UHGV virus genome: UHGV-0253013
DNA length: 45,926 nt
Source: a virus
Direction: 5' to 3' (one strand)
Under the pieces are notes generated by a model, which did no database searches, was not told the origin of the DNA, and saw only the letters and a list, made by a program, of their open reading frames with translations. This document shows, piece by piece, positions 2,003-45,926 of this stretch (the first letter of the stretch is position 1; the number at the start of each line of letters is the position of its first letter). The position numbers were made by a program, and so were the translations under genes.

Positions 2003-2290
2003 ATGAGTACGCCTGAGGGGCGCATCCAGAAATACGCAAAAGAGAGATTTGAGGTCATGGGGGGCCTTGTACGCAAATTGTCGTACGAAAATAGAGTGGG
2101 AGCCCCTGACCTGCTGGTAATTCTCCCCGGCGGCATCGTCTGGTTCGTGGAGGTTAAGAAAGACGAAAACACGAAGCCTGACCCGCACCAGTTACGTGAG
2201 CATGAGCGGATGCGTAAACGCGGTGCAAATGTTTTTGTCGTTGGGTCGTTTAAACAGGTTGACGACCTAATAGCGAACTATTATAGTTAG
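2003..2290 (+). CDS. VRR-NUC domain nuclease
   Basis: GAPDLLVILPGGIVWFVEVKKDE...HQ pattern typical of VRR-NUC (PD-(D/E)xK) nucleases; sits in the replication cluster. Confidence 0.7.
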   Translation: MSTPEGRIQKYAKERFEVMGGLVRKLSYENRVGAPDLLVILPGGIVWFVEVKKDENTKPDPHQLREHERMRKRGANVFVVGSFKQVDDLIANYYS

Positions 2291-2320: not shown

Positions 2321-2512
2321 ATGAAACATGAATATGACCGCAAACCAGCACGCGACATCGTACCTGGCGATATGATTTTCAACGTCAAGACGCGCCAGCC
2401 TGTTGCCGTTGATACGGTGTTCGTAGAGTCGAACGGTAAACTGGTTATCGAAGACGTAACAGGAAACGTTACCGCGTTCGGGCGTAAAGAGCTGGTTCTG
2501 GTGGCCAAATGA
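2321..2512 (+). CDS. hypothetical protein
   Basis: ORF with AGGAATTGAG upstream; stop overlaps the helicase start (ATGA). Confidence 0.4.
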   Translation: MKHEYDRKPARDIVPGDMIFNVKTRQPVAVDTVFVESNGKLVIEDVTGNVTAFGRKELVLVAK

Positions 2513-4974
2513 ATAAATTCACTAGAAGGCCTTATCAAAAGCTCATGACCTCGTTCATGCTGCAACACCCGCGCTGTAATATCTGGGCCAGTATGGGCAG
2601 CGGCAAGTGCCTGAAACGCGGGACTGAAGTTATTATGTTTGACGGTACGACCAAGAAAGTAGAAGACGTCATCGTCGGTGACGTGCTTATGGGGCCGGAT
2701 TCAACGCCTAGAAATGTACTGTCTCTCGGTAGAGGCCGGGAGATGATGTACGAGGTTAAACCGCGAAAAGGAGAGTCGTATACGGTCAACGAAAGCCATA
2801 TATTATCCCTGCGAACTACTACAGGGATCGCAAAAGGTTCATGGCCAGATGATACCGTTTTCGACATAAGCGTCCGCGACTGGCTTAAGTTGCCGAAATA
2901 TGTAACCGGGCCTAATGGGTATCTTAAGGGTTGGCGGGTACCTGTCGATTTTACAAGGAAAGAGCAGGACGAGGCTTTATTGCCTCCGTACCTTATGGGG
3001 TTATGGCTGGGCGACGGTACTTCGTCGTCTGGGGCCATAACATCAGGAGAGAACGAAAAGGAAATAAGGGCGTATCTTGAGTCGTACGCAGCACGTAATG
3101 GGATGCAAATACGAAAAGAAGGACTTACATGGAGTATATCTTACGGCAACACAGGTCATAAGAAGCACGGGTTTACACACGCGCTGAAATCGGCGGGTGT
3201 CCTGAACAATAAGCATATACCGCATAATTACAAATGCGGCGACCGGCGACAGCGTTTAGAATTGCTGGCGGGGCTTCTGGATAGTGATGGTTACTGCGAT
3301 TTGTCTAAAGCAGGTTTTGACTGGATTTCGGTAAGCGAGCGACTCGCTGATGATTTTTGCTATCTATGCCGTTCTCTTGGTTTCGCCGCTTACAAGAAGA
3401 AAACTCGTAAGCGTTGCGCAAACACTGATGTTTGGGGTGACTACTTTAGCGTATCAGTATCGGGCGATTTTTCTGAGGTACCTTTCGTGCGCGGACGCCA
3501 CCAGAATTTACCGAAGCGTAATATTAATAAGAACGTGCTTAACGTTGGGATAGAATCCATAACCCCGGTCGGCGTAGATGACTATTTTGGCTTCACTATC
3601 GACGGTGACAGTCGGTTTTTATTGGGGGACTTCACTGTCACGCACAATACAAGCTCAACGTTGTGGGCTCTCAACAGACTGTTCCGTAATGGGCAACTTA
3701 ATGACGACGACCGAGTGTTAATTCTGGCTCCTTTACGTGTTGCGTCCGGCACGTGGCCCGCGGAACAGGCACGTTGGAACTTCCCGTGTTTGCATGTTGT
3801 AGACGCAACTGGTTCAGAGAAGCGCCGCATCGCGGCGCTGGAGTCAGATGCCAACGTGGTGTGCACGAACTACGAAGTTATTGAGTGGCTGATTGACTAC
3901 TACGGCAAAGACGACTGGCCTTTTACGGTTATCGTTGCCGATGAAAGCACGAAGCTCAAATCATTCCGTAGCCGTTCCGGCGGCAGCAAGCGTGCAAAGG
4001 CGCTTAGCAAAGTGGCGTTCGGTAAGGTTAAGCGTTTCATCAACCTTACCGGTACGCCGTCGCCGAACGGCCTCAAAGACTTGTGGGGGCAGAACTGGTT
4101 TATCGACGGCGGAGAGCGCCTGGGGTCATCGTACACCGCATTCACAGACCGCTGGTTTAACTCGGTACAGAAAGGCAAATCAGCGATGGCACGTGAATAT
4201 CACGCACGCCCGGGCGCAGATAACGAGATTCACCAGAAGATGAAGGACATTAGTCTCACGATTGACGCCGCCGAGTGGTTTGGGTGTGAAGCGCCGATTA
4301 TCGTACCGGTCGAAATCGACCTGCCGAAGAAAGCGCGGCAGGCGTACATCGATATGGAGGAGAAGCTATTCGCGGAACTGGAGAGCGGAGAAGTTGAAGC
4401 GGCTAACGCCGCGGCGAAGACCTCAAAGTGCTTGCAGATTGCTTCCGGTGCCGTATATGTATCGGGGCCGGACGGCGAAGCAACGAAAGACTGGGAGAAA
4501 GTGCACGACACGAAACTTGATGCGCTCGAGTCGATTGTTGAGGAGTTACAGGGTGCGCCGTTACTGGTAGCCTATCAGTTCAAGCATGAACTGGAGCGCA
4601 TCCTTAAGCGATTCCCGCAAGCACAGGCATTTGCCAAAGGTGCTAAGGGTAATAAGCAGATGGAAGCGTGGAACCGTAGGGAGATACCTATGCTCCTGAT
4701 ACACCCAGCCTCCGCAGGCCACGGACTGTCGCTACAACACGGCGGACACCACATGGCCTTTATGAGTCAGGGGTGGAACCTGGAACATTATCTGCAGGTT
4801 ATCGAGCGTATAGGCCCAGTAAGGCAGATGCAATCCGGATACAAACGGTCTGTATTCATTTATCAAATAATAGCACGAGATACTCTTGATGAAGTTGTCG
4901 CCTCTCGTACAGACGAGAAAAGGTCTGTACAGGACGAACTACTTAATTATATGAAGCGCAGAGGTAAGAAATGA
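2509..4974 (+). CDS. SNF2/DEAD-like helicase, intein-containing
   Basis: Walker A MGSGK|...|TSS is split by the insert; downstream VIVADEST (DExx-like) and INLTGTPSPNGL (motif III-like). Confidence 0.8.
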   Translation: MNKFTRRPYQKLMTSFMLQHPRCNIWASMGSGKCLKRGTEVIMFDGTTKKVEDVIVGDVLMGPDSTPRNVLSLGRGREMMYEVKPRKGESYTVNESHILSLRTTTGIAKGSWPDDTVFDISVRDWLKLPKYVTGPNGYLKGWRVPVDFTRKEQDEALLPPYLMGLWLGDGTSSSGAITSGENEKEIRAYLESYAARNGMQIRKEGLTWSISYGNTGHKKHGFTHALKSAGVLNNKHIPHNYKCGDRRQRLELLAGLLDSDGYCDLSKAGFDWISVSERLADDFCYLCRSLGFAAYKKKTRKRCANTDVWGDYFSVSVSGDFSEVPFVRGRHQNLPKRNINKNVLNVGIESITPVGVDDYFGFTIDGDSRFLLGDFTVTHNTSSTLWALNRLFRNGQLNDDDRVLILAPLRVASGTWPAEQARWNFPCLHVVDATGSEKRRIAALESDANVVCTNYEVIEWLIDYYGKDDWPFTVIVADESTKLKSFRSRSGGSKRAKALSKVAFGKVKRFINLTGTPSPNGLKDLWGQNWFIDGGERLGSSYTAFTDRWFNSVQKGKSAMAREYHARPGADNEIHQKMKDISLTIDAAEWFGCEAPIIVPVEIDLPKKARQAYIDMEEKLFAELESGEVEAANAAAKTSKCLQIASGAVYVSGPDGEATKDWEKVHDTKLDALESIVEELQGAPLLVAYQFKHELERILKRFPQAQAFAKGAKGNKQMEAWNRREIPMLLIHPASAGHGLSLQHGGHHMAFMSQGWNLEHYLQVIERIGPVRQMQSGYKRSVFIYQIIARDTLDEVVASRTDEKRSVQDELLNYMKRRGKK
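2608..3648 (+). mobile_element. intein (347 aa) with LAGLIDADG homing endonuclease domain, inserted in the helicase P-loop
   Basis: Starts with Cys directly after GSGK; ends ...VTHN followed by Thr (+1 nucleophile). Block B-like NESHILSL. Two LAGLIDADG motifs: LMGLWLGDG and LAGLLDSDG. Excision restores GSGKTSS. Confidence 0.8.
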
Positions 4975-5294: not shown

Positions 5295-5320
5295 AAGGCC
5301 CCGTTTGGGGCCTTGTTTAT
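5295..5320. terminator. bidirectional rho-independent terminator between convergent genes
   Basis: AAGGCCCC-GTTT-GGGGCCTT hairpin followed by TTGTTTATTT; sits between the rightward early genes and the leftward tailspike gene. Confidence 0.6.
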
Positions 5321-15202: not shown

Positions 15203-15231
15203 TTGCACACCCCAATATAATAGGGTACTAT
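15203..15231 (+). promoter_or_regulatory. sigma70-like promoter, class A (TTGCAC-N17-TACTAT) with embedded AATAGGGTACTATT inverted repeat
   Basis: TTGCAC at 15203-15208, 17-nt spacer, TACTAT at 15226-15231; about 40 nt upstream of the ATG at 15272. Near-identical copies at 25976, 36521 (-) and 37566 (-). Confidence 0.5.
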
Positions 15232-15271
15232 TCACTTACACCAACGTTATTAACTTAAATAAGGAATTAAA

Positions 15272-15598
15272 ATGCGTAAATTAATCATAGCCCTGGGTCT
15301 TATTTCTTTTTGCGCGGTAGGGTCCCAGTGTGAGCAAGTATATAGCGAAACCCCTTTAGTAACTTCCGGGGCGCTTGATTCAGCGCCTCCTGCTGCCGTT
15401 AGTGCGTTTAAAACCGCTGCTATTCGCGAGTGTAATGCGGCCCTGCGGGCTGGCAGGTCTGGCCTGGGTCTTGAATTGATGACATCCCTTGTTGTTGAGT
15501 CTGTAGATGTTAGCAGCCCTGCTTTCAGCAGCCTACTGTTAGCCACTCGTTTGCAAATGGTTACAACCGGATGGGCAATAGGCGCAGAAAGTAAATAG
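15272..15598 (+). CDS. small secreted protein (signal peptide), moron-like
   Basis: N-terminal MRKLIIALGLISFCAVGSQC looks like a signal peptide; AAGGA RBS; own promoter; opposite strand to the flanking tail genes. Confidence 0.5.
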   Translation: MRKLIIALGLISFCAVGSQCEQVYSETPLVTSGALDSAPPAAVSAFKTAAIRECNAALRAGRSGLGLELMTSLVVESVDVSSPAFSSLLLATRLQMVTTGWAIGAESK

Positions 15599-15663: not shown

Positions 15664-16794
15664 ATGGCCCAGAAGAAAATAACCGACGAACAGTTACAGG
15701 AAGAATTGAACGCCGGGATGAAGAATGTAGACATCGCCCGTAAATACGGCATCTCAGACCGCGTTATTCGTATCCGTAAAGCAAAACTAGCTAAGAAAGG
15801 CGTAGGCCACGGACGCGACGTTAGCCACCTCGTACCAGACGGCTACAAGATTAAGGGCACGTCGTCACTTGTGGACGAGTTCGGCAACACTAAGTTGCAA
15901 TGGGTTAAGACCGACACCGACGCCGAACGTCAGGTCGAGTTGATGAAAGCCGTAATAGAAGGTATGAAGTCAGAGATTACGCCGGTTGCGCCTGTTAAAG
16001 CGACTCGCGCCAAACGCAACGATAAACTACTCAATCTTTACACGGTATCTGATTTTCATCTCGGTATGCTGGCTTGGGCCGACGAGAGCGGCGACGACTG
16101 GGATATGAAGATTGCGGAAGACCTGTTCTCCCGTTGGTTCGATGCTGCATTTCAGAAAGCACCAGATGCAGCAACTGGGGTTATTAACCTGCTGGGTGAT
16201 TTCGCGCACTTCGATAGTCTGGTTGCCGTTACACCCGCAAGCGGTCACGCCCTTGACGCTGACACTCGCTATCAGAAACTGGTGCGCTACATGATTCGTA
16301 TGGTCCGCCGTGTGGTGGATATGGCTCTGGTTAAGCATAAAAATGTTCGCTTGCTTATCGTACAAGGGAACCACGACGAAAGCGGAATGATTTGGTTGGC
16401 GGAGATGTTCAGTACGCTGTACGACAACGAGCCGCGTGTGTTCGTAGATACGTCGCCGGATGTCTACAAGATGGTGCAACATGGCAAAACGACTCTGTTC
16501 TTTACACACGGGCATAAATGCCGGTTTGAGGTGGTCGAACCCATTATGATAGCTAAGTTCAGAAAAGCATTTGGCGAAAGCGAGTACAGTTACGCGCATG
16601 TAGGACATCTCCACCATCAAAAGATTGTAGAAAGTAGGAATATGGTAGTGGAACAGCATCGCACTCTCGCGGCGAAAGATGCATATGCTTCTCGCGGCGG
16701 GTGGATGTCTAAGAGGTCCGCTAATGTCATAACCTATAGTTCAGAGTTCGGGGAAGTAGGTAGGCTTTCAATCTCACCGGAGATGCTAAGATGA
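15664..16794 (+). CDS. HTH domain fused to a calcineurin-like metallophosphoesterase (SbcD/Mre11-like or class III phosphodiesterase-like)
   Basis: N-terminal DIARKYGISDRVIRIRKAKL HTH-like; MPE motifs SDFHLG, GDFAHFD, QGNHDE, FTHGH, HVGHLHH in canonical order. Confidence 0.65.
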   Translation: MAQKKITDEQLQEELNAGMKNVDIARKYGISDRVIRIRKAKLAKKGVGHGRDVSHLVPDGYKIKGTSSLVDEFGNTKLQWVKTDTDAERQVELMKAVIEGMKSEITPVAPVKATRAKRNDKLLNLYTVSDFHLGMLAWADESGDDWDMKIAEDLFSRWFDAAFQKAPDAATGVINLLGDFAHFDSLVAVTPASGHALDADTRYQKLVRYMIRMVRRVVDMALVKHKNVRLLIVQGNHDESGMIWLAEMFSTLYDNEPRVFVDTSPDVYKMVQHGKTTLFFTHGHKCRFEVVEPIMIAKFRKAFGESEYSYAHVGHLHHQKIVESRNMVVEQHRTLAAKDAYASRGGWMSKRSANVITYSSEFGEVGRLSISPEMLR

Positions 16795-17261
16795 AGTATC
16801 TTGATGTTTCAAAACAATTTAAATACTGCCCTGAGACGGGGCAGGTTACCAGGATATCTACTGGTGCTGAGGTTGGTACGGTTGGTGTAAGAGGTTATTT
16901 GTGCTGCGGTATGGGTGGTAAAACAGTGTATGTCCACCGCATAGCATGGTGTCTTTATAATAAATGCAACTTAGACAGGAAAACTCAAATAGACCACATA
17001 AACCATAACAGGCTAGACAATAGGATAGAAAATCTACGCGCCACCGACAATACAGGGAACAGTAAAAATAAAACTATGCGAAAGATAAATAAATCCGGGG
17101 CCACAGGTGTAAGTTTCCACAAAGCCGCGGGTAAGTGGCGCGCGTTTATAAAAGTTAACTACAAACAAGTACATTTAGGGCTTTACGACGATTTTGATGT
17201 AGCGGTTGCCGCGCGTAAAGCCGCTGAAAGTAAATACGGTTTCCATGAAAACCATGAGTAG
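16791..17261 (+). CDS. HNH homing endonuclease with AP2-like domain (paralog 2 of 3)
   Basis: QIDHINHNRLDNRIENLRAT HNH motif; C-terminal SGATGVSFHKAAGKWRAFIKV...YGFHENHE closely parallels the 1270..1788 and 41257..41757 products. Confidence 0.8.
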   Translation: MKYLDVSKQFKYCPETGQVTRISTGAEVGTVGVRGYLCCGMGGKTVYVHRIAWCLYNKCNLDRKTQIDHINHNRLDNRIENLRATDNTGNSKNKTMRKINKSGATGVSFHKAAGKWRAFIKVNYKQVHLGLYDDFDVAVAARKAAESKYGFHENHE

Positions 17262-17506: not shown

Positions 17507-17530
17507 AAAAGGCCCCGAAAGGGGCCTTAG
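17507..17530. terminator. bidirectional rho-independent terminator
   Basis: AAAAGGCCCC-GAAA-GGGGCCTT hairpin then TTTTA; between the rightward island and the leftward major tail gene stop (17533). Confidence 0.6.
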
Positions 17531-24307: not shown

Positions 24308-24350
24308 AGCTTAGCACATTTTTAGTGAAAAGTCAACTATTCGAATAGTT
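24308..24350 (-). promoter_or_regulatory. candidate promoter (TTGACT-N17-TAAGCT, minus strand) with a perfect 16-bp palindrome over the -35
   Basis: Plus-strand AACTATTCGAATAGTT (24335-24350) is a perfect palindrome of GAATAGTT half-sites; reverse complement gives TTGACT, 17 nt, TAAGCT. Confidence 0.35.
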
Positions 24351-24398: not shown

Positions 24399-24424
24399 TT
24401 AAAAAAGCCCCTTTCGGGGCCTCT
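24399..24424 (-). terminator. rho-independent terminator after the Ig-like gene
   Basis: Minus-strand GCCCCGAAAGGGGC hairpin followed by TTTTTT; just below the stop at 24427. Confidence 0.6.
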
Positions 24425-25975: not shown

Positions 25976-26004
25976 TTGCAGACACCAACATAATAGGGTA
26001 CTAT
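25976..26004 (+). promoter_or_regulatory. sigma70-like promoter, class A (TTGCAG-N17-TACTAT)
   Basis: TTGCAG at 25976-25981, 17-nt spacer containing ATAATAGGG, TACTAT at 25999-26004; upstream of the ATG at 26032. Confidence 0.5.
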
Positions 26005-26031
26005 TCAGTTAACTTAAACAGGAGACGAAAG

Positions 26032-26193
26032 ATGAAATTAGTAAAAAGAATTACCGTAAACATTAACACAAGTTCGAAAAACGGAGACAAACGTAAGTTC
26101 CGCCGTAAAATGCGCCAAATCGCTAAACTCGACTACATCTTCGGGGAAACGATTGCACTCGCAGTAGGCGCCGCACGCAACTGGAGGCGTTAA
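26032..26193 (+). CDS. small basic protein (53 aa)
   Basis: ATG at 26032 preceded by GGAG; first gene of the rightward insert upstream of the YhhQ-like gene. Confidence 0.4.
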   Translation: MKLVKRITVNINTSSKNGDKRKFRRKMRQIAKLDYIFGETIALAVGAARNWRR

Positions 26194-26194
26194 T

Positions 26195-26659
26195 ATGATG
26201 TACTTTGTGTACATAGGCGCGATATGCGCCGCCAACTTTTCGGTATCCGTTTTCGGTCCGTGGGCAACTCCTATAAACGCTTTTGTTCTTATCGGTCTTG
26301 ATTTTGTGATAAGAGATAAGTTGCATGAAAGAATCGGTGTGCGAAAAATATTTATACTCATAGTTGTTGCGGGGGTAATAAGTTACGCCATTAACCCTGC
26401 AACGGGTAAGATTGCCTCTGCAAGTGTGGTGGCATTCGCATTTGCTGCGTTGGTAGACGCGATTGTGTACCAGTTGCTTATTAACCAAAAGTGGCTAGTA
26501 AAGTCTAACGTCAGTAACACAGCGGCATCCGCTGTTGATTCGTTTATTTTTCCTTTAATCGCCTTTGGGGCTTTCATGCCGCTTGTAGTTCTCGGGCAAT
26601 TCGCCGCTAAAGTTATCGGGGGCGCTACCTGGTCACTCCTGTTGAGGAAAGTTAAATGA
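26195..26659 (+). CDS. yhhQ: YhhQ-like membrane protein (7-deazaguanine precursor transporter family), short form
   Basis: Multi-TM protein; segments KSNVSNTAASAVDSFIFPLIAFG and ASVVAFAFAALVDAIVYQLL resemble remembered E. coli YhhQ motifs (no alignment run); adjacent to a DpdA-like gene. Confidence 0.55.
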   Translation: MMYFVYIGAICAANFSVSVFGPWATPINAFVLIGLDFVIRDKLHERIGVRKIFILIVVAGVISYAINPATGKIASASVVAFAFAALVDAIVYQLLINQKWLVKSNVSNTAASAVDSFIFPLIAFGAFMPLVVLGQFAAKVIGGATWSLLLRKVK

Positions 26660-27390
26660 CAGTACACTACCACGGCGGCCCTATTTGGGGTGGGGGTGAA
26701 CTTATAAAAGCGTTGTACAGAGGGGGAGGTGCTCTGGTGTCCTATGCGCGTCCAGACCAGATACGAAAGATAGCCGCCATGAGATGTAAATTAGTACTGG
26801 ATAACGGTGCTTTTTCAACGTGGAAGAAAGCCCCGGAAAACATAGACTGGAGTGCACACTGGGCAGGATATTATGATTTTGTTGGTGAGTGGTTCAGCCG
26901 TATTGAGTGGTTCATAATACCTGACGTTATCGAAGGTTCCGAGGAGGAAAACGACGCGTTAATAGAAACTGTGCCGGATTGGTTAATGCCCAAGGCTGTC
27001 CCGGTGTGGCATAGTGACGAGAGTATAAGAAGACTGATAAAACTATGCAGGAAGTTCCCTCGAGTTGCTATAGGCTGCTGCGGCCCACACAGGGCTATAC
27101 GTTCTAAGTCGTGGGAAAAAAGAATGGATCAGGCGTTTAATGCGGTTTACAGAAACCGGAAACTAGATGTAAAACTACACGGACTTAGAATGCTGGATGG
27201 AAGGGCGTTAAGCCGCTACCCTTTTGATAGCGCAGACAGCACAAACGTAGCTATAAATGTACCAAAAACGAAGGCAAGACTGCCTAACATAACCGATAAA
27301 CTACACCGCACAGCTATAATGCGGCACACGATAGAAATGGTGAAACCACCCTCGGTTGGTGAATGGTTATTTAAAACTAAGGCCCCATAA
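26656..27390 (+). CDS. dpdA: DpdA-like transglycosylase (candidate 7-deazaguanine DNA-modifying enzyme)
   Basis: 244 aa, translationally coupled to the YhhQ-like gene. Call rests on a remembered resemblance to short phage DpdA/TGT-like proteins (YHGGPIWGG, LVLDNGAFS, FIIPDVIEGSEEEND) and on context. Confidence 0.5.
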   Translation: MTVHYHGGPIWGGGELIKALYRGGGALVSYARPDQIRKIAAMRCKLVLDNGAFSTWKKAPENIDWSAHWAGYYDFVGEWFSRIEWFIIPDVIEGSEEENDALIETVPDWLMPKAVPVWHSDESIRRLIKLCRKFPRVAIGCCGPHRAIRSKSWEKRMDQAFNAVYRNRKLDVKLHGLRMLDGRALSRYPFDSADSTNVAINVPKTKARLPNITDKLHRTAIMRHTIEMVKPPSVGEWLFKTKAP

Positions 27391-27406
27391 CGGGGCCTTT
27401 TTCTTT
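27379..27406. terminator. bidirectional terminator between the DpdA-like and portal genes
   Basis: AAGGCCCC-ATAA-CGGGGCCTT hairpin followed by TTTCTTT; both convergent stops lie in or beside it. Confidence 0.55.
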
Positions 27407-33823: not shown

Positions 33824-33852
33824 AATATAATAGGGTCGATGGTAATAGTCAA
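33824..33852 (-). promoter_or_regulatory. sigma70-like promoter (TTGACT-N17-TATATT, minus strand)
   Basis: Minus-strand read GTTGACT, 17 nt, TATATT; about 35 nt upstream of the ATG at 33789. Confidence 0.5.
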
Positions 33853-34059
33853 CTAGTCATCGCAGAAAATAGATAAAAAAAATCCCGGCTGGGTCAGGGC
33901 CGGGATAAAACTGGAGAGCAGAGGGATGGAACAGGAGGTGATTTAAGTATCGTCGGATTGGTCTTAGGTGTCAACCTTTTCGACTCCCGCCAATCATACC
34001 CCAAATCACGCCAACTACCGCACCAGCTCCAATAGCCAGGAAAATGAAGTCAAACTCTG

Positions 34060-36359: not shown

Positions 36360-36520
36360 CAGCTTCACCCCTTTTCCCATCCACCCCGACTAGCAGCGAT
36401 TTAGTGTCGCCGTCGCACACCGAAGTGCTACCCATTATTTCGTAAGCGTCTACCAGTTCGCCTAAAGTCCAGCTACCGTACCAGCCCATCTTCTGTCTCT
36501 CCTCTCGTTTGTGTAAATGA

Positions 36521-36549
36521 ATAGTAGCCTATTCTATCTTAGTGTGCAA
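36521..36549 (-). promoter_or_regulatory. sigma70-like promoter, class A (TTGCAC-N17-TACTAT, minus strand)
   Basis: Minus-strand read CTTGCACACTAAGATAGAATAGGCTACTATTCA; the -10 overlaps an AATAGGCTACTATT inverted repeat. Confidence 0.5.
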
Positions 36550-37342: not shown

Positions 37343-37540
37343 TCAATTTGCTCCTTTGAATTTAAAATTGTTGCCGATGAGTTTTAACCCATTAGCTTCG
37401 TAATAAACCGAAGAATTTAATCCGCCCCGCCTGATATAACGGATGATATAGGACCCTGGGTATGCGACAGACTCTTTTACGACAACACCAAAGCCATATG
37501 CTGTTTTCACCAACTGACCCTTCTTAAACATAACCCTCAC
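37343..37540 (-). CDS. hypothetical protein
   Basis: First ORF downstream of the class A promoter at 37566-37594. Confidence 0.4.
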   Translation of the reverse strand: MRVMFKKGQLVKTAYGFGVVVKESVAYPGSYIIRYIRRGGLNSSVYYEANGLKLIGNNFKFKGAN

Positions 37541-37565
37541 TCCTCTGTCTCATTTCGATAAGTGA

Positions 37566-37594
37566 ATAGTACCCTATTATATTGGGGTGTGCAA
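37566..37594 (-). promoter_or_regulatory. sigma70-like promoter, class A (TTGCAC-N17-TACTAT, minus strand)
   Basis: Minus-strand read CTTGCACACCCCAATATAATAGGGTACTATTCACTTA, matching the 15203 copy over about 35 nt. Confidence 0.55.
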
Positions 37595-37821
37595 GAGAAT
37601 AGTTACGTTGCCGTTGTGATTCTTCGGGGAAGGTTGTGCCTTTATTCTTATTACTTGGTAACTAAAGGGCAGGCCTTAAGCCTGCCCAATAATCGTTACA
37701 TTTTTACGGTTGCGAATCTACGGCACATTAAGAAACAGTAGATATTTCAGCGGGTTACTTCTTTAAATGAGATTTAGATACACTTATCCTTAAACCCCAA
37801 GGCAAGCATCTCAGCTGTCTG

Positions 37822-37862: not shown

Positions 37863-37952
37863 GTAATATATACAAGTCCCAAAACCATTATACAAACATG
37901 TGTCAAGAACTTTCAATAACATTTTTGTAAAGATTAAATATTACAGAGATTG

Positions 37953-38013: not shown

Positions 38014-38196
38014 ATGTCGCATTATATGACGCAGAATGAAGTAGCTGAACGTATCGGGGTGACACGTCAGACAATTAATAACTGGTTGCGCAGCGGCAAA
38101 TTCCCTGACTGCTGTATTAAGGTTATGGGCCGCCGTTTACCGGGAACATTTGACCGTAATAAAGTCGAAGCATGGATTAAGGAGAACGTGAAATGA
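38014..38196 (+). CDS. small HTH DNA-binding protein (AlpA/excisionase-like fold)
   Basis: ATG at 38014 after AGGAG; MSHYMTQNEVAERIGVTRQTINNWLRSGKFP is a typical small phage HTH regulator sequence. Confidence 0.55.
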   Translation: MSHYMTQNEVAERIGVTRQTINNWLRSGKFPDCCIKVMGRRLPGTFDRNKVEAWIKENVK

Positions 38197-38681: not shown

Positions 38682-40900
38682 ATATTGTTTTTGCAACGCT
38701 GCGTAACACATTCGATAAAAACCCTGTAGCGCGTGAAATGCCGCTGGAGCAGTTTGTCGAGTATGTCTGCGATACATCGAAGCGTTTATCCGTGGACCCG
38801 TCATGGACTAAGGAAGAGTACGACGCTGCCAAGATTAAACAGAAAGCTATTGCGCCTGTTGGTGGTCGCCGTAAAAACGCTATCCTGGAAGACAGTGTGG
38901 TTAAGTTCGATTTCGACCATCTCAACCGTACTCAGTACCGCGACCTGACACGCAAATTCAAGAACGCGCCGTTCTTCAATATTCTGCACACAACGGCATC
39001 GCATCAGCACGCATGTAAAAACGGATATTACGCTTTCCGCGTTCTGGTTCCAGCTCGCACGCCGTTTAACTCTAACGACGCGTGGATGGTGCAACGTGCT
39101 ATTTGTGCAGAGTTAGAAATAGACGAAGCGTTGCGCGACCACTGCACAGAAGACGGCAACCGCCTTATCTACCTGCCGCATAAAGAGTCGAAGATAACGG
39201 TCACAGAAGGGCGCGTTATCCGCGCCGAGCGGTACATCAAGAAAGCCGAAGAGATGGGGTTGCGTAAGCGTGAGGCTAAAACACTTGCCGCTGATGAGCA
39301 TGGGCTTAACGCGGATATAGCACACTTCTGCGAAGCCGAGCTTGGCCTTGACGCTTTATCTTCCGGGCGCGGGTACGAAGTGCCATGCCCTAACGAACAT
39401 CTGCATACAGGCAAGGGCTCCACCAGCATAATGCTCGACGGTAAAGAAGTGCGCTTTGTCTGCCAGCATACAAACAACGGCGCTTGCACCGAGCTTAACC
39501 GTAGGCAGCATTTGGCCCTGCGTATGTGTGGCCTACCCGACGAGCTTAACGTAGATAAGCAACCTATCAGCATTAACAGCATTCGTGCGGCTCTGCCTGA
39601 TTTACCGGAAGAAGAGATTGAAGAACTACACCGCACAGAGAACGAGGACCCAGTAACTTGCAGCCTCGACGACCTGGAAGACGATGCGGAATCAGAGGAG
39701 GACGAGTTACCAGAACCGGTAAAGGCTGATTTCGTCGTTGAAGGGTACATGCCGTCGGATTGCATCTGGGATATCGTCGGGGAGTCGGGCACATACAAAT
39801 CGTTCTATACGCTGGGGATGATGTATCTTAGCGCCGCCGGATACCGGTTCGCCGGGGCGGACACCCAGCGTTGCCATCACTTCTATATTGATGGTGAAGG
39901 TGGTGCGGCTACACGTACACGTATCGATGCACTCGCGGCTAAATACGGCGAGGAAGGTAAAGATTATGTACATGTCATCGACATGGGTGAAGTCGGCAAA
40001 CTGAAAAACCTGATTAAGTTGATGCGTGAAACTGCTGGCGACGAGCCAATTGGGATGGTCGCGTTCGACACCCTTAACCAGACCCTGGCTCTGACGATTG
40101 ATAAGTTCGATGAGAACAGTTCATCGACGGCAATCGGCATGGGTAAAGTTATCGCCATCCTGAAAGAAGTACGCGACGCAACTAAAGCCGCGGTAGGCGT
40201 CGTCCACCATACCCCGAAGGGTGGAAAGAAAGCCCGTGGCAGTGGCGCGCTGTACGCAGGCGTCGATGTGGAACTGACAATTGAACGCGCAACCGACCGT
40301 CAGATAAATGTATACCACTCTAAATTTAAGCACGGGCCTCAACAGAAGACGGTTGGTATGGTGCTGGAGTCGGTACAGTTCCGTGAAGCCCCGCCGCCGA
40401 AAGAGTACCGTGCGGTTGAGTTCCTGGGTAGCACAGAGGAATACGGCACAATCGTAAACCTGGACCTTCCTGAGCCGCACAAGGCACTTGTGCTGATGCC
40501 GTGGGGATTCGAGCCGTTCAAGACCGACGAAGAGAAAGAGCGGGAAGAAGGGTTGACTAACGAAGGTAAGCAAAAAGTAAAGGAAGAAGTTAAACGCGGC
40601 AGGGATGAAGTAAGGAAGGAGTCAATACTTTCGGCACTGGAAGACCTGCAACAGTCAGATGACACAGGTCGCGGTTTTACTCAGCAGCAGATAGTTGCCC
40701 GTTCCGGTGACTTTTCTGTGACTAACACCCATCTTGATAAAATGCTGAAAGATGGCGAACTAATGCTAGGCTGTGACGTTAACGGCGAAGTAGTGCCGAG
40801 AACGTATCGTATACCTGAAAGAATAGGGGATAGACTAAGGCCGAAGACAATATACGAACCGAATGAAATGCTGGTGGTGACAGAGGAGGATTTGGAGTAG
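38678..40900 (+). CDS. primase/helicase-like replication protein with RecA-type ATPase domain
   Basis: 740 aa; Walker A GESGTYKS, Walker B-like GMVAFDTL, VGVVHHTPKGG; N-terminal domain with Cys/His cluster; acidic linker. Confidence 0.65.
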   Translation: MNIVFATLRNTFDKNPVAREMPLEQFVEYVCDTSKRLSVDPSWTKEEYDAAKIKQKAIAPVGGRRKNAILEDSVVKFDFDHLNRTQYRDLTRKFKNAPFFNILHTTASHQHACKNGYYAFRVLVPARTPFNSNDAWMVQRAICAELEIDEALRDHCTEDGNRLIYLPHKESKITVTEGRVIRAERYIKKAEEMGLRKREAKTLAADEHGLNADIAHFCEAELGLDALSSGRGYEVPCPNEHLHTGKGSTSIMLDGKEVRFVCQHTNNGACTELNRRQHLALRMCGLPDELNVDKQPISINSIRAALPDLPEEEIEELHRTENEDPVTCSLDDLEDDAESEEDELPEPVKADFVVEGYMPSDCIWDIVGESGTYKSFYTLGMMYLSAAGYRFAGADTQRCHHFYIDGEGGAATRTRIDALAAKYGEEGKDYVHVIDMGEVGKLKNLIKLMRETAGDEPIGMVAFDTLNQTLALTIDKFDENSSSTAIGMGKVIAILKEVRDATKAAVGVVHHTPKGGKKARGSGALYAGVDVELTIERATDRQINVYHSKFKHGPQQKTVGMVLESVQFREAPPPKEYRAVEFLGSTEEYGTIVNLDLPEPHKALVLMPWGFEPFKTDEEKEREEGLTNEGKQKVKEEVKRGRDEVRKESILSALEDLQQSDDTGRGFTQQQIVARSGDFSVTNTHLDKMLKDGELMLGCDVNGEVVPRTYRIPERIGDRLRPKTIYEPNEMLVVTEEDLE

Positions 40901-40909
40901 GTAAAAAGA

Positions 40910-40927
40910 AAGGGGCATTAAGCCCCT
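40910..40927. terminator. bidirectional terminator between convergent genes
   Basis: AAGGGGC-ATTA-GCCCCTT hairpin between the primase/helicase stop (40900) and the leftward XRE gene stop (40918). Confidence 0.5.
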
Positions 40928-41133
40928 TCACCTAGCGCCAGCCACTTGGCGTCTACCTCCAGCACTTCCGCCAGTTTAAACAGCGTTGCCGGGCGGACGT
41001 CCTGGGTTACCCCAAGTGCCAGCTGGTTAATTGCGCCCTGGGAAACCCCGGTCAGCACCGCCAGACGGCGCTGGGAAATACCGAGTTCTTTACGGCGCTG
41101 TTCTACACGGATGCCTAGTTCAGATGGTTGCAT
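40918..41133 (-). CDS. XRE-family HTH transcriptional regulator (Cro/CI-like)
   Basis: RRKELGISQRRLAVLTGVSQGAINQLALG is a canonical XRE helix-turn-helix; the only leftward gene in the rightward replication block. Confidence 0.7.
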   Translation of the reverse strand: MQPSELGIRVEQRRKELGISQRRLAVLTGVSQGAINQLALGVTQDVRPATLFKLAEVLEVDAKWLALGEGA

Positions 41134-41197
41134 GTCAATTACTCCTTAGTCAGTTGATATGTGAATAGTACCATATTAATTATTTTAGAAAAGCCCG

Positions 41198-41226
41198 TTG
41201 ACAAGTGAATAGTTCGCTATTATAGT
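41198..41226 (+). promoter_or_regulatory. sigma70-like promoter, class B (TTGACA-N17-TATAGT) with embedded operator-like inverted repeat
   Basis: TTGACA at 41198-41203, spacer AGTGAATAGTTCGCTAT, TATAGT at 41221-41226; a related GTGAATAGTACCATATTAAT element lies at 41161-41180. Confidence 0.55.
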
Positions 41227-41256: not shown

Positions 41257-41757
41257 ATGGATACCAAATACATTAAAACGTCTATGTTCAGTTATGAACC
41301 AGAAACTGGAGTACTTCGATGGGCTGTAAAGAGGGGCAAGGTTAAACCAGGAGACGAGGCCGGATGTTTGGCCAAAACATGCGGGTATAGAATGGTTAGA
41401 CTAGACGGTGTGTTAACCCCGGTACACAGGATAGTATGGGATATGCTTAATCCTACGGATAAACTACAAGAAGGTGACGAAATAGACCATATAGACCACG
41501 ATAAACTTAATAACCGAGCTTCTAATCTTAGAAAAGTTTGCCACCTATCAAATATGCACAACAGGTCAAAGCACAAGAACAACACATCAGGTGTAACCGG
41601 CGTGTCTTGGGTGGGGAAGCAAAATAAGTGGTATGCGTACATATACAAAAAAGGTACAAATTACAACTTAGGATACTTTTCAAAATTTGAAGATGCTGTT
41701 TTCGCAAGAAAAGAAGCAGAAATAAAACTCAACTTCCATAAAAATCACGGAGAATGA
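41257..41757 (+). CDS. HNH homing endonuclease with AP2-like domain (paralog 3 of 3)
   Basis: EIDHIDHDKLNNRASNLRKV HNH motif; C-terminal SGVTGVSW...YFSKFEDAVFARKEAE...NFHKNHGE parallels the other two paralogs. Confidence 0.8.
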   Translation: MDTKYIKTSMFSYEPETGVLRWAVKRGKVKPGDEAGCLAKTCGYRMVRLDGVLTPVHRIVWDMLNPTDKLQEGDEIDHIDHDKLNNRASNLRKVCHLSNMHNRSKHKNNTSGVTGVSWVGKQNKWYAYIYKKGTNYNLGYFSKFEDAVFARKEAEIKLNFHKNHGE

Positions 41758-44228: not shown

Positions 44229-44257
44229 TTGACACCTGAATAGTTAGCTATTATAGT
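44229..44257 (+). promoter_or_regulatory. sigma70-like promoter, class B (TTGACA-N17-TATAGT) with embedded operator-like inverted repeat
   Basis: TTGACA at 44229-44234, spacer CCTGAATAGTTAGCTAT, TATAGT at 44252-44257; same architecture as the 41198 copy. Confidence 0.55.
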
Positions 44258-44311
44258 TCTAATCACTGGCCTGGCAGCTTCCAGGAGTAAACTGAAAAGC
44301 GAGAAATTAAG

Positions 44312-44938
44312 ATGGGAATTAAACTGAATCTGCGTAAAGTAAACACTGCATGGGTTAACGTATTCGAACGCGAAAAAGACCGTGAAAACGATGATGGCTC
44401 CATCACTAAAGGCCAGTATAGCGCGACTATCATCCTGCCGCCTGACCACGCTCAAATCGATGCACTCTACGACACTGTTTACGCTGTAGTTGAAGAAGCG
44501 TTAGGCGCAGCTGCTGCCGAGAAATGGATGAAGTCCAACTACGGCGAAGGTAAGCACATGGATAAATGCGCGATTAAAGACATTGCTGAGCGTGATAACC
44601 CGTTTGAAGACTTCCCAGAAGGCTTCTACTTCAAAGCGAAGGCGCAGAAGCAGCCGCTGATTGTAACCTCTAAAAAAGGTGAGACTCAGGTGGAGCAGGA
44701 CTTCAACGTAGACGGCGAACAGATTGAAGGCGAACAGGTTTACAGTGGCTGTGTCGCTAACGTAAGCGTCGAAATCTGGTTCAGCCAGAAATATAAAGTT
44801 CTCGGGGTTAACCTGCTGGCGATTAAGTACGTCGGTGAAGGTAAAGCGTTCGGCGGTTCTAAAGTCGCCGCAAGCGTCGACGACCTGGAAGACGACGAAG
44901 AAGATGAAGCACCGCGCCGCGAACGTCGCCGCCGTTAA
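44312..44938 (+). CDS. DUF2815-like protein (putative ssDNA-binding protein)
   Basis: 208 aa with acidic C-terminal tail (DDLEDDEEDEAPRRERRRR); placed between the DUF2800-like nuclease and the polymerase. Confidence 0.55.
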   Translation: MGIKLNLRKVNTAWVNVFEREKDRENDDGSITKGQYSATIILPPDHAQIDALYDTVYAVVEEALGAAAAEKWMKSNYGEGKHMDKCAIKDIAERDNPFEDFPEGFYFKAKAQKQPLIVTSKKGETQVEQDFNVDGEQIEGEQVYSGCVANVSVEIWFSQKYKVLGVNLLAIKYVGEGKAFGGSKVAASVDDLEDDEEDEAPRRERRRR

Positions 44939-44997: not shown

Positions 44998-45926
44998 ATG
45001 AGTTACCTGTTCTTAGACTTTGAAACATTCTCCGAAGCCGATTTAAAGAAAGTCGGCTCCTACGCTTACGCCGAACACCCGACTACCGAAGTGCTTATCT
45101 GCACATATGCTTTTGACGACGAGCCTGTGCGGGTATGGGATTGCACCGACGGCAGCGACATGCCGGGTGATTTGCACCGCGCACTGCGCCGCCTGGTTAA
45201 GCCGAACAGTCGTATTAAGATGGTGTGGCACAACGGCTCAATGTTCGACAGGCTCATCATGAAACACTGCTGGGGCTTTGATATTCCCGTAAGCAACACC
45301 ATTGATACGATGATTTGGGCGTTTCGTCACGCGCTGCCGGGTTCACTTGATGCGCTGTGTGAAGTGCTTGGCGTGTCTGCTGACAATGCAAAAGATAAAC
45401 GCGGCAAGGCGCTGATTCAGCGTTTCTCTAAACCGACACCGAAGAATTACAAAATCCGCCGCTACACCGCAGAAACACACCCGGACGAGTGGGCGCTGTT
45501 CATCAAGTACGCCGTGAGCGACATCACTGCGATGCGTGAAGTCTTCCATAAGCTGCCGCGTTGGGGTAACTCTGAGTTCGAAGACCGTGTACTGGAACTG
45601 GACCAGTTAATCAACGACCGCGGGTTTAAGGTTGACGTTGCACTGGCGGAAGCCGCTATTGAAGCCGTGGAGAAACACAAAGCGCAGTTACAGGAGGAAG
45701 CCCAACGCAAATACGGCGGCTCGCTTACTGGTAAGGACTTTCTGCCGATTCTTCGTGAACTCGCCCCTGCACACCGCATACACAACGCACAGAAGTCGAC
45801 GCTTAACGACCTGCTGGCGGACGATGATTTACCGGACGACGCACGCACAATTATCGAAATGCGCCTGGGGGCAGCGTCCACTGCATCAACGAAATATAAC
45901 CCGCTGCTGTTAGGTCGCTCTTCGGA
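44998..45926 (+). CDS. DNA polymerase, family A, N-terminal 3'-5' exonuclease domain; 3' end lies outside the window
   Basis: ATG at 44998 after the leader ACTAAGGGTTGAAAATAATGA; LFLDFETFSEADL is an Exo I-like motif; frame still open at the last base. Confidence 0.8.
   Translation, partial: MSYLFLDFETFSEADLKKVGSYAYAEHPTTEVLICTYAFDDEPVRVWDCTDGSDMPGDLHRALRRLVKPNSRIKMVWHNGSMFDRLIMKHCWGFDIPVSNTIDTMIWAFRHALPGSLDALCEVLGVSADNAKDKRGKALIQRFSKPTPKNYKIRRYTAETHPDEWALFIKYAVSDITAMREVFHKLPRWGNSEFEDRVLELDQLINDRGFKVDVALAEAAIEAVEKHKAQLQEEAQRKYGGSLTGKDFLPILRELAPAHRIHNAQKSTLNDLLADDDLPDDARTIIEMRLGAASTASTKYNPLLLGRSS

Follow-up and report, generated by a model that had tools for sequence, protein, structure and literature searches.

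We consider it probable, though by no means assured, that the repeated promoter-like elements of UHGV-0253013, a viral genome of 45,926 nucleotides (nt) whose full stretch is called the window here, belong to a set of about ten sigma-70 promoters sharing one operator, the palindrome AATAG-N4-CTATT, and that a dimer of the small XRE protein encoded by the same genome is the most likely binder of this operator and turns the promoters down. Four of these promoters, termed class A, had been singled out in an original prediction made from the letters of the window, which placed all four transcription units under one DNA-binding protein. The core of that proposal stands, as the inverted repeat does resemble the binding site of one protein, but the set is not one of four and comprises about ten promoter-like sequences.

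The four class A elements are present at the coordinates and on the strands that had been proposed:

15203..15231, plus strand: class A promoter P1 (site 1), with -35 TTGCAC at 15203-15208, -10 TACTAT at 15226-15231 and the palindrome AATAGGGTACTATT at 15219-15232.
25976..26004, plus strand: class A promoter P2 (site 2), with -35 TTGCAG, -10 TACTAT and the palindrome at 25992-26005.
36521..36549, minus strand: class A promoter P3 (site 3), an internal early promoter with the palindrome AATAGGCTACTATT at 36520-36533 and the ATG of its first gene at 36489.
37566..37594, minus strand: class A promoter P4 (site 4), with the palindrome at 37565-37578 and the ATG of its first gene at 37531.

The 32-mer of site 1 (15203-15234, plus strand) reads TTGCACACCCCAATATAATAGGGTACTATTCA. 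Site 4 (37594-37563, minus strand) is the same as site 1 across 37 nt (CTTGCAC...CACTTA), while site 2 (25976-26007, plus strand) differs at 3 of 32 positions, with TTGCAG instead of TTGCAC as its -35, and site 3 (36549-36518, minus strand) at 6 of 32, every one of them in the spacer or the palindrome centre. With up to 3 mismatches allowed, the 32-mer finds 3 matches in the window against 0.00 expected from shuffled sequences. The spacing TTGCAC-N17-TACTAT holds in the sequences of all four sites, the TTGCAG of site 2 included. The inverted repeat had been located in the spacer with the -10 inside it; the overlap with the -10 is confirmed, but the repeat is not confined to the spacer and instead spans spacer and -10, the hexamer taking in two bases at the end of the centre and four of the right arm. 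The placement ahead of first genes is also borne out, with 41, 28, 32 and 35 nt separating the last base of the -10 from the start codon at sites 1 to 4 (ATG at 15272, 26032, 36489 and 37531), each preceded by a ribosome-binding site. Given a TTG in the -35, a 17-nt spacer, a TAnnnT in the -10 and the correct orientation 28-41 nt before a start codon, the four elements look like sigma-70-type promoters that would be read by host RNA polymerase, in keeping with what had been proposed. Site 4 heads a long minus-strand unit of early genes followed by lysis, head and tail genes.

The palindrome extends well beyond class A. The genome contains 7 perfect and 4 one-mismatch copies, whereas 1.14 would be expected by chance, and a total of 11 was not attained in any of 100 shuffles. 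Among inverted repeats of the 5-N-5 type, the palindrome is by far the most over-represented in this genome (7 copies against 3 for the runner-up) and also the top one in the four relatives examined, among them Bas75 with 7 copies, Shelanagig with 5 and LM02P1 with 8. Besides the class A sites, perfect copies start at 2269, 41208 and 44239 and one-mismatch copies at 41164, 33844, 24328 and 38838. All but one of the eleven copies are placed on promoter-like sequences facing the downstream gene; the exception, at 38838, lies within the helicase-primase gene and is probably a chance occurrence. The promoters outside class A are the following:

2259..2287, plus strand: class B promoter, TTGACG-N17-TATAGT, with the palindrome at 2269-2282, overlapping the 3' end of the VRR-NUC gene.
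41198..41226, plus strand: class B promoter, TTGACA-N17-TATAGT (11 of 12 consensus matches), with the palindrome at 41208-41221, divergent from the XRE gene.
44229..44257, plus strand: class B promoter, TTGACA-N17-TATAGT (11 of 12), with the palindrome at 44239-44252.
41164..41177, minus strand: own promoter of the XRE gene, with the one-mismatch palindrome AATATGGTACTATT over the -10 TACTAT (41170-41165) and a poor -35.
33824..33857, minus strand: class C promoter, TTGACT-N17-TATATT (33852-33824), with a one-mismatch palindrome at 33844-33857 over the -35 and a CCCTATTATA half-site at the -10.
24308..24341, minus strand: class C promoter, TTGACT-N17-TAAGCT (24336-24308), with the one-mismatch palindrome AATAGTTGACTTTT at 24328-24341 over the -35.

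All three classes pair their -35 and -10 hexamers at 17-nt spacing. Class B promoters (TTGAC[A/G]-N17-TATAGT, plus strand, 10-11 of 12 consensus matches) hold the palindrome in the spacer, in an orientation relative to transcription that is reversed from class A, and have replication genes downstream. That at 2259..2287 precedes an open reading frame (ORF, 2321..2512) and an intein-containing SNF2 helicase gene (2509..4974); that at 41198..41226 would drive an HNH endonuclease gene (41257..41757) and those behind it; and that at 44229..44257 would drive a Gp2.5-like gene for single-stranded DNA binding and annealing (44312..44938) and the DNA polymerase gene, which runs from 44998 across the window end to 1273. 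Both class C promoters follow a terminator. The one at 33824..33857 heads small genes, a NinH-like gene and packaging genes, and the one at 24308..24341, behind a terminator at about 24404-24424, heads spanin, scaffold and capsid genes. Perfect palindromes are thereby found on early, replication-gene and accessory-cassette promoters, and one-mismatch copies on two late promoters and the XRE promoter, where 41164..41177 is a putative autoregulatory site. As for the placement of the palindrome, its centre lies at about -12.5 in class A promoters, -18.5 in those of class B and -33 in those of class C. As its offset from the -10 varies and the orientation can be flipped, the palindrome is not part of the recognition sequence of RNA polymerase, and such changes in helical phase are more easily reconciled with blocking than with an activator that makes a fixed contact.

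The window represents a complete, circularly permuted genome, as the DNA polymerase ORF (733 amino acids, aa) runs across its ends (44998-45926 and 1-1273). Megablast places it in Kagunavirus (Guernseyvirinae), with about 88-92% identity to many E. coli siphophages, and several hundred additional matches are Salmonella phages of Jerseyvirus. The phage is a lytic E. coli phage with its genes in the reverse order of phage Bas75. No integrase or repressor of CI length is annotated in the relatives Bas75 and Shelanagig, and no prophage or episome copies were found in 5,426 complete E. coli genomes and 185,579 species-representative genomes, the exception being one 6-kb contig in a metagenome-assembled genome. 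The large ORFs of the window can all be assigned to replication, packaging or structural genes, and intrinsic terminators are numerous between its co-oriented genes. Three small helix-turn-helix (HTH) proteins are encoded: the XRE protein (HTH_3), an HTH_17 protein and the NinH-like protein.

Comparison among these relatives separates the palindrome from the promoter beneath it. Corresponding promoters are kept in Bas75 and LM02P1 (Kagunavirus), in Shelanagig (Jerseyvirus) and in about 45 metagenomic loci. Distinct perfect sites number 43 for Kagunavirus and 16 for Jerseyvirus; in the latter, the palindrome is centred at about -15.5, or sits in a class A promoter with an 18-nt spacer. Alignments anchored on the downstream gene instead of the motif avoid circularity for the arms. 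In such an alignment of the promoter of the single-stranded DNA-binding (SSB) gene, with 39 distinct Kagunavirus and Jerseyvirus sequences, TTGAC, AATAG, CTATT and the -10 are all conserved but the 4 nt between the two arms vary freely, and the spacer-embedded AATAG arm is held as tightly as the -35 across the two genera. Sigma-70 does not read the spacer positions in which this arm sits. The palindrome therefore looks like a separate protein-binding site placed on top of sigma-70 promoters.

A third clade of Guernseyvirinae provides a further comparison. The STP-1 clade (STP-1 and vB_SenTO17), which infects Salmonella, lacks AATAG-N4-CTATT and instead carries ATTA-N6-TAAT, which covers the -10 (TAATAT), at the corresponding promoters of early genes and cassettes (L005:13478, 26311 and 33031; L082:12635 and 35478). 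Since the STP-1 clade and Jerseyvirus share a host but not a palindrome, the host polymerase does not dictate the sequence, and on this comparison of genomes the element tracks phage lineage rather than host. For the same reason a host factor is an unlikely binder.

As a separate observation, the counterpart of site 4 in the Jerseyvirus phage Shelanagig (L002:36436-36470) is a longer perfect palindrome with 15-nt arms, AACCTGTAATAATAG-TACT-CTATTATTACAGGTT.

Of the two proteins that had been put forward as binders, the XRE protein is favoured, based on its likeness to 434 Cro, the palindromes flanking its gene, its invariant recognition helix and a pattern in the bases flanking the arms:

40918..41133, minus strand: XRE/HTH_3 protein of 71 aa, similar to 434 Cro and 434 repressor; the candidate binder favoured here.

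The protein matches Pfam HTH_3 (E = 2e-12), and its best solved relatives in phmmer are 434 Cro (8e-6) and 434 repressor (1.5e-5). An AlphaFold2 model with a predicted local distance difference test score (pLDDT) of 77 gives 1PRA, 2CRO and 3CRO as top Foldseek matches (template modelling score of about 0.75, 36-39% identity), so that the predicted fold is of the five-helix HTH_3 type related to these two proteins. The operators of 434 and P22 have the same 5-4-5 layout as AATAG-N4-CTATT. Within the 124 base pairs (bp) that separate the XRE gene from the divergently oriented gene next to it, two palindromes occur 44 bp apart. The recognition helix, GVSQGAINQLALG, is invariant in all Kagunavirus variants of the protein, even those with an overall identity as low as 77%. 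All 32 Jerseyvirus half-sites have a T immediately outside the arm, while Kagunavirus has T in 41 and G in 33 of 86, a pattern that tracks the type of XRE protein and not the helix type of the HTH_17 protein. The XRE protein of the STP-1 clade, with its different palindrome, is 41% identical, and its gene heads the helicase-primase operon.

Several points weigh against this assignment and against the promoter reading beneath it. The main weakness concerns Jerseyvirus, in which the XRE protein is 48-49% identical and its recognition helix differs at 4 of 8 positions (SQSLITHL vs SQGAINQL) while the arm bases are the same; identical arms despite a changed helix weaken the link between protein and site. 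The difference in the base outside the arm could reflect promoter constraints or shared descent instead of protein specificity. In the gene-anchored alignment of the XRE gene's own promoter, only the right half-site is kept across the two genera. At many sites the right arm overlaps the -10, and its conservation is partly promoter-driven; the class logos, built from sites picked by their arm match, are circular for the arms. The class A hexamers match the consensus at only 7 of 12 positions (TTGCAC 3 of 6, TACTAT 4 of 6) and therefore score below the threshold of the promoter scanner. Finally, no binding or transcription data for these elements, and no transcriptome from Guernseyvirinae, were found in the searchable literature.

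If the XRE protein is indeed the binder, host RNA polymerase would transcribe from all palindrome-bearing promoters until an XRE dimer on the palindrome blocks it. Since the perfect sites belong to early, replication and cassette promoters and the imperfect ones to late promoters and the XRE gene itself, rising XRE levels would lower early, middle and accessory transcription more than late transcription. This would be a Cro-like role as in lambdoid phages, without a partner for lysogeny.

The closest known system is that of 434. Both proteins are small, all-helical members of HTH_3, and the matched 434 Cro chain also has 71 aa; the 434 operators, like the operator predicted here, are 14-bp palindromes with conserved 5-bp arms and a variable 4-bp centre that lie over promoter cores. 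Three differences stand out. In contrast to 434 (and to c2/Cro of P22), there is no CI partner, no integrase and no prophage form here; single sites are spread over about ten promoters instead of being gathered in tripartite OR/OL clusters, only the XRE region having two; and the half-site is AATAG, whereas that of 434 is ACAAG. The C1 repressor of phage P1 offers another likeness, as one small phage repressor is proposed to act on many scattered promoters through single overlapping operators. P1 is a temperate phage in which C1 maintains lysogeny, the operators are dispersed, asymmetric 17-mers, and C1 is unrelated to HTH_3. The stoperators of L5 and Bxb1 likewise are many copies of one short repressor site, but they are asymmetric, oriented with transcription and located within operons, where they block elongation, while the sites here are symmetric and lie on promoter cores.

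The alternative that survives best, although we hold it to be unlikely, is that the palindrome is read by the second candidate of the original prediction instead of the XRE protein:

38014..38196, plus strand: HTH_17 protein of 60 aa with a predicted winged-helix fold (Xis/BldC/RacA type); rival binder, disfavoured.

Such a protein could act as a repressor, as an activator, or as a Q/AlpA-like factor that loads onto RNA polymerase within the promoter and makes it read through terminators. It is 80-100% conserved in Kagunavirus and Jerseyvirus, where the palindrome is present, and absent from the STP-1 clade, where the palindrome is absent as well; the family is restricted to this phage group (16 clusters), and its gene occupies an early position as the first of the helicase-primase operon. 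Some database entries are labelled 'PrtN pyocin activator', and the abundance of intrinsic terminators between co-oriented genes would suit a read-through factor. The elements bound by Q and AlpA are located inside promoters. In this respect the palindromes resemble the Q elements of lambda, 21 and 82 and those of AlpA, being sites inside sigma-70 promoters of a genome with many terminators between co-oriented genes; they differ in being palindromic and in having no fixed position relative to the -10, and no homologue of Q or AlpA was detected here. What speaks against the HTH_17 protein is that a Kagunavirus contig (L027) has an unrelated 149-aa ORF where its gene would be, although 6 perfect palindromes are still present within 20 kb. 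In LM02P1 and two further relatives (L008 and L029) the recognition helix changes from TRQTINN to SPMTLNR or STMTLNR while the palindromes are unchanged, and the base preference outside the arm does not follow the helix type. The protein has no Phage_AlpA or Q match in Pfam, a sequence search against solved structures gave weak generic HTH matches only, and its nearest folds are BldC, RacA, Pukovnik Xis, RdfS and the N-terminal domains of MerR. Several proteins of these types bind direct repeats head to tail. In addition, offsets of -12.5, -15.5, -18.5 and -33 ill suit a factor that needs a fixed geometry with RNA polymerase; as a loading site of the Q/AlpA type the element was rejected, with no homologue of either protein and an offset that varies by at least 6 bp between classes and genera.

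The exchange in this contig (L027:12559-13144) brings in a 47-aa Cys-rich ORF together with the 149-aa ORF, and the N-terminal half of the helicase-primase also differs, pointing to a mosaic swap of the module.

It is rather improbable that the elements are simple constitutive sigma-70 promoters without a regulator of their own, and that the palindrome and the near-identity of the copies arose from common descent or gene conversion of a promoter module and from back-to-back -10-like hexamers for two-way transcription. Sites 1, 2 and 4 do lie within divergent intergenic regions, and site 4 shares its palindrome with a promoter-like sequence on the other strand:

37555..37583, plus strand: class-B-like promoter, TCGATA-N17-TATATT, on the opposite strand of P4 with the same palindrome, facing the HTH_17 and helicase-primase genes.

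The Shelanagig sequence that corresponds to site 1 likewise has good promoters on both strands around a common palindrome. The identity of sites 1 and 4 across 37 nt includes positions without an obvious role, and class A cassettes occupy different places in the window and in Bas75, so that promoter modules move. Two-way transcription, however, does not explain the symmetry, as the class B copies at 2269 and 44239, like that of class A site 3, are perfectly symmetric while the genes flanking them run the same way on both sides. Nor would constitutive promoters account for an AATAG arm that is held like the -35 in two genera while the centre drifts, for four different offsets in both orientations, or for the different palindrome of the STP-1 clade in the same host as Jerseyvirus.

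Far less credit is given to the possibility that the repeats serve chiefly as boundaries at which accessory ('moron') cassettes recombine or move, comparable to the promoter-stem-loop cassettes by which genes are shuffled in phages of the T4 type, with promoter activity being secondary. Both counter-oriented cassettes have a class A promoter at one end and a AAGGCCCC-N4-GGGGCCTT terminator at the other, and cassette position and content differ among the window phage, Bas75 and Shelanagig. Nevertheless, the copies of classes B and C, those at sites 3 and 4 and those of the XRE region, which make up the majority, keep a fixed position ahead of core genes in two genera, and palindromic arms with a free centre would be left unexplained. 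Boundary function can also be compatible with the operator model.

The motif itself is not new, having been published as a PHIRE 'phage promoter' consensus (PMC9825357, PMC8790156). For fBC-Eco01, a PHIRE consensus tgAATAGTa-ccTATTat-T with 7 copies was ascribed to phage RNA polymerase (PMC9825357), and for SGP-C the consensus is TAATAGTACCCTATTATGTT (PMC8790156); the report on Golestan gives 7 PHIRE promoters (PMC7203180). The motifs of fBC-Eco01 and SGP-C are the same element, namely the reverse complement of the class A core, at approximately the same copy number per genome. The PHIRE genome papers present a consensus only, with the palindrome not separated from the -35 and -10, no link to an XRE protein and no experiment. 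There is next to no chance that the elements are promoters for a phage-encoded RNA polymerase or DNA-hairpin promoters of the N4 type, even though PHIRE, which recovers the motif, is often used for the former and a 5-bp stem with a 4-nt loop is possible in principle: the polymerase reading is effectively refuted by gene content (no RNA polymerase gene in the annotation of Bas75 or Shelanagig or among the window ORFs) and sits badly with -35/-10 hexamers at 17-nt spacing, and neither a stable hairpin of single-stranded DNA nor a cruciform was found, the folding energy of -1.9 kcal/mol being no better than that of shuffled sequence (z-scores of -0.3 to -1.3).

Further candidates were tried and set aside. 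A sigma-32 promoter (CTTGAAA...CCCCATNT) resembles CTTGCAC-ACCCCAAT, with a spacing of 1 nt here vs the 13-15 of sigma-32 promoters; for sigma-54 the required GG 10 nt upstream of GC is absent; and the host regulator sites ARG box, NarL and marbox do not fit, all three comparisons being made by eye. Rfam gave no match at the gathering threshold anywhere in the window. In the STP-1 clade, TAAC-N6-GTTA (8 copies in vB_SenTO17) was rejected as an operator, its copies lying within genes with no common context.

Read in this way, the arrangement is ordinary Cro-type phage gene control and the conceptual gain is modest; what sets it apart is that a lytic phage carries a single operator on almost every one of its promoters, and that this operator occurs in three positions with respect to the promoter elements. 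Reading the elements as host-type promoters with a Cro-type operator corrects their annotation as 'phage promoters' or phage-polymerase promoters. It also narrows control to a short list of sites and one protein, and ties the accessory cassettes, with their putative lipoprotein and possible DNA-modification module, into the same control. Kagunavirus and Jerseyvirus are widely isolated and have been suggested as agents against E. coli and Salmonella in therapy and biocontrol, while their gene control is little explored; a compact promoter-repressor pair might find use in engineering. A bolder idea, which we offer tentatively and regard as doubtful, is that the whole programme of a lytic phage is run by a 71-aa Cro-like protein with no CI, sigma factor or antiterminator, shutdown being graded by operator quality and related phages that arrive later being silenced. 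Were this true, exclusion would be lineage-specific and its specificity would differ between Guernseyvirinae clades, with AATAG half-sites in some and ATTA half-sites in another.

Within the minus-strand late genes lie two short plus-strand cassettes, one headed by class A site 1 and the other by site 2. The cassette of site 1 encodes a putative lipoprotein (15272..15598), a metallophosphoesterase (15664..16794), an HNH endonuclease (16791..17261) and a 76-aa ORF, and ends at a bidirectional terminator (17509-17528). That of site 2 encodes a 53-aa ORF (26032..26193), a Vut_1/YhhQ-like membrane protein (26195..26659) and a queuine tRNA-ribosyltransferase-like protein (26656..27390), with its terminator at 27379-27399. 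These two terminators belong to a bidirectional family, AAGGCCCC-N4-GGGGCCTT, with four copies in the window (5295-5314, 17509-17528, 24404-24424 and 27379-27399). As their position and content vary between the window phage, Bas75 and Shelanagig, the cassettes behave as movable accessory modules that carry a standard promoter and operator along. In the cassette of site 2, the matches to Pfam Vut_1 (E = 6e-9) and to the queuine tRNA-ribosyltransferase-like PHROG 887 (E = 1e-83) form a pair that suggests a 7-deazaguanine DNA-modification module, possibly with an anti-restriction role. The Bas75 equivalent of this cassette holds one small gene only, at a different position.

Additional features of the genome were noted. 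Behind the class B promoter at 44229..44257, the 5' leader of the SSB-like gene contains a stem-loop (44266-44288) that is conserved in Kagunavirus and Jerseyvirus. Its stem is CCTGG...CCAGG in the window vs CCGGG...CCCGG in the other aligned Kagunavirus sequences, a compensatory double change, and it may be a translational or stability element. The intein in the SNF2-type helicase gene (2509-4974) has Hint and LAGLIDADG homing-endonuclease domains; the helicase of Bas75 is much shorter (474 aa), and that of Shelanagig also contains an intein. Three free-standing ORFs for HNH-type endonucleases are located at 1270-1788, 16791-17261 and 41257-41757, two of which match Pfam HNH_3, one of these with an additional AP2-like domain, while the ORF at 1270-1788 was assigned by eye. 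Lastly, a promoter-like sequence without the palindrome, TTGAAA-N18-TATAAT (37887-37916, minus strand, 11 of 12 consensus matches), faces a strong hairpin at 37667-37687 with no conserved ORF evident, and might yield a short transcript.

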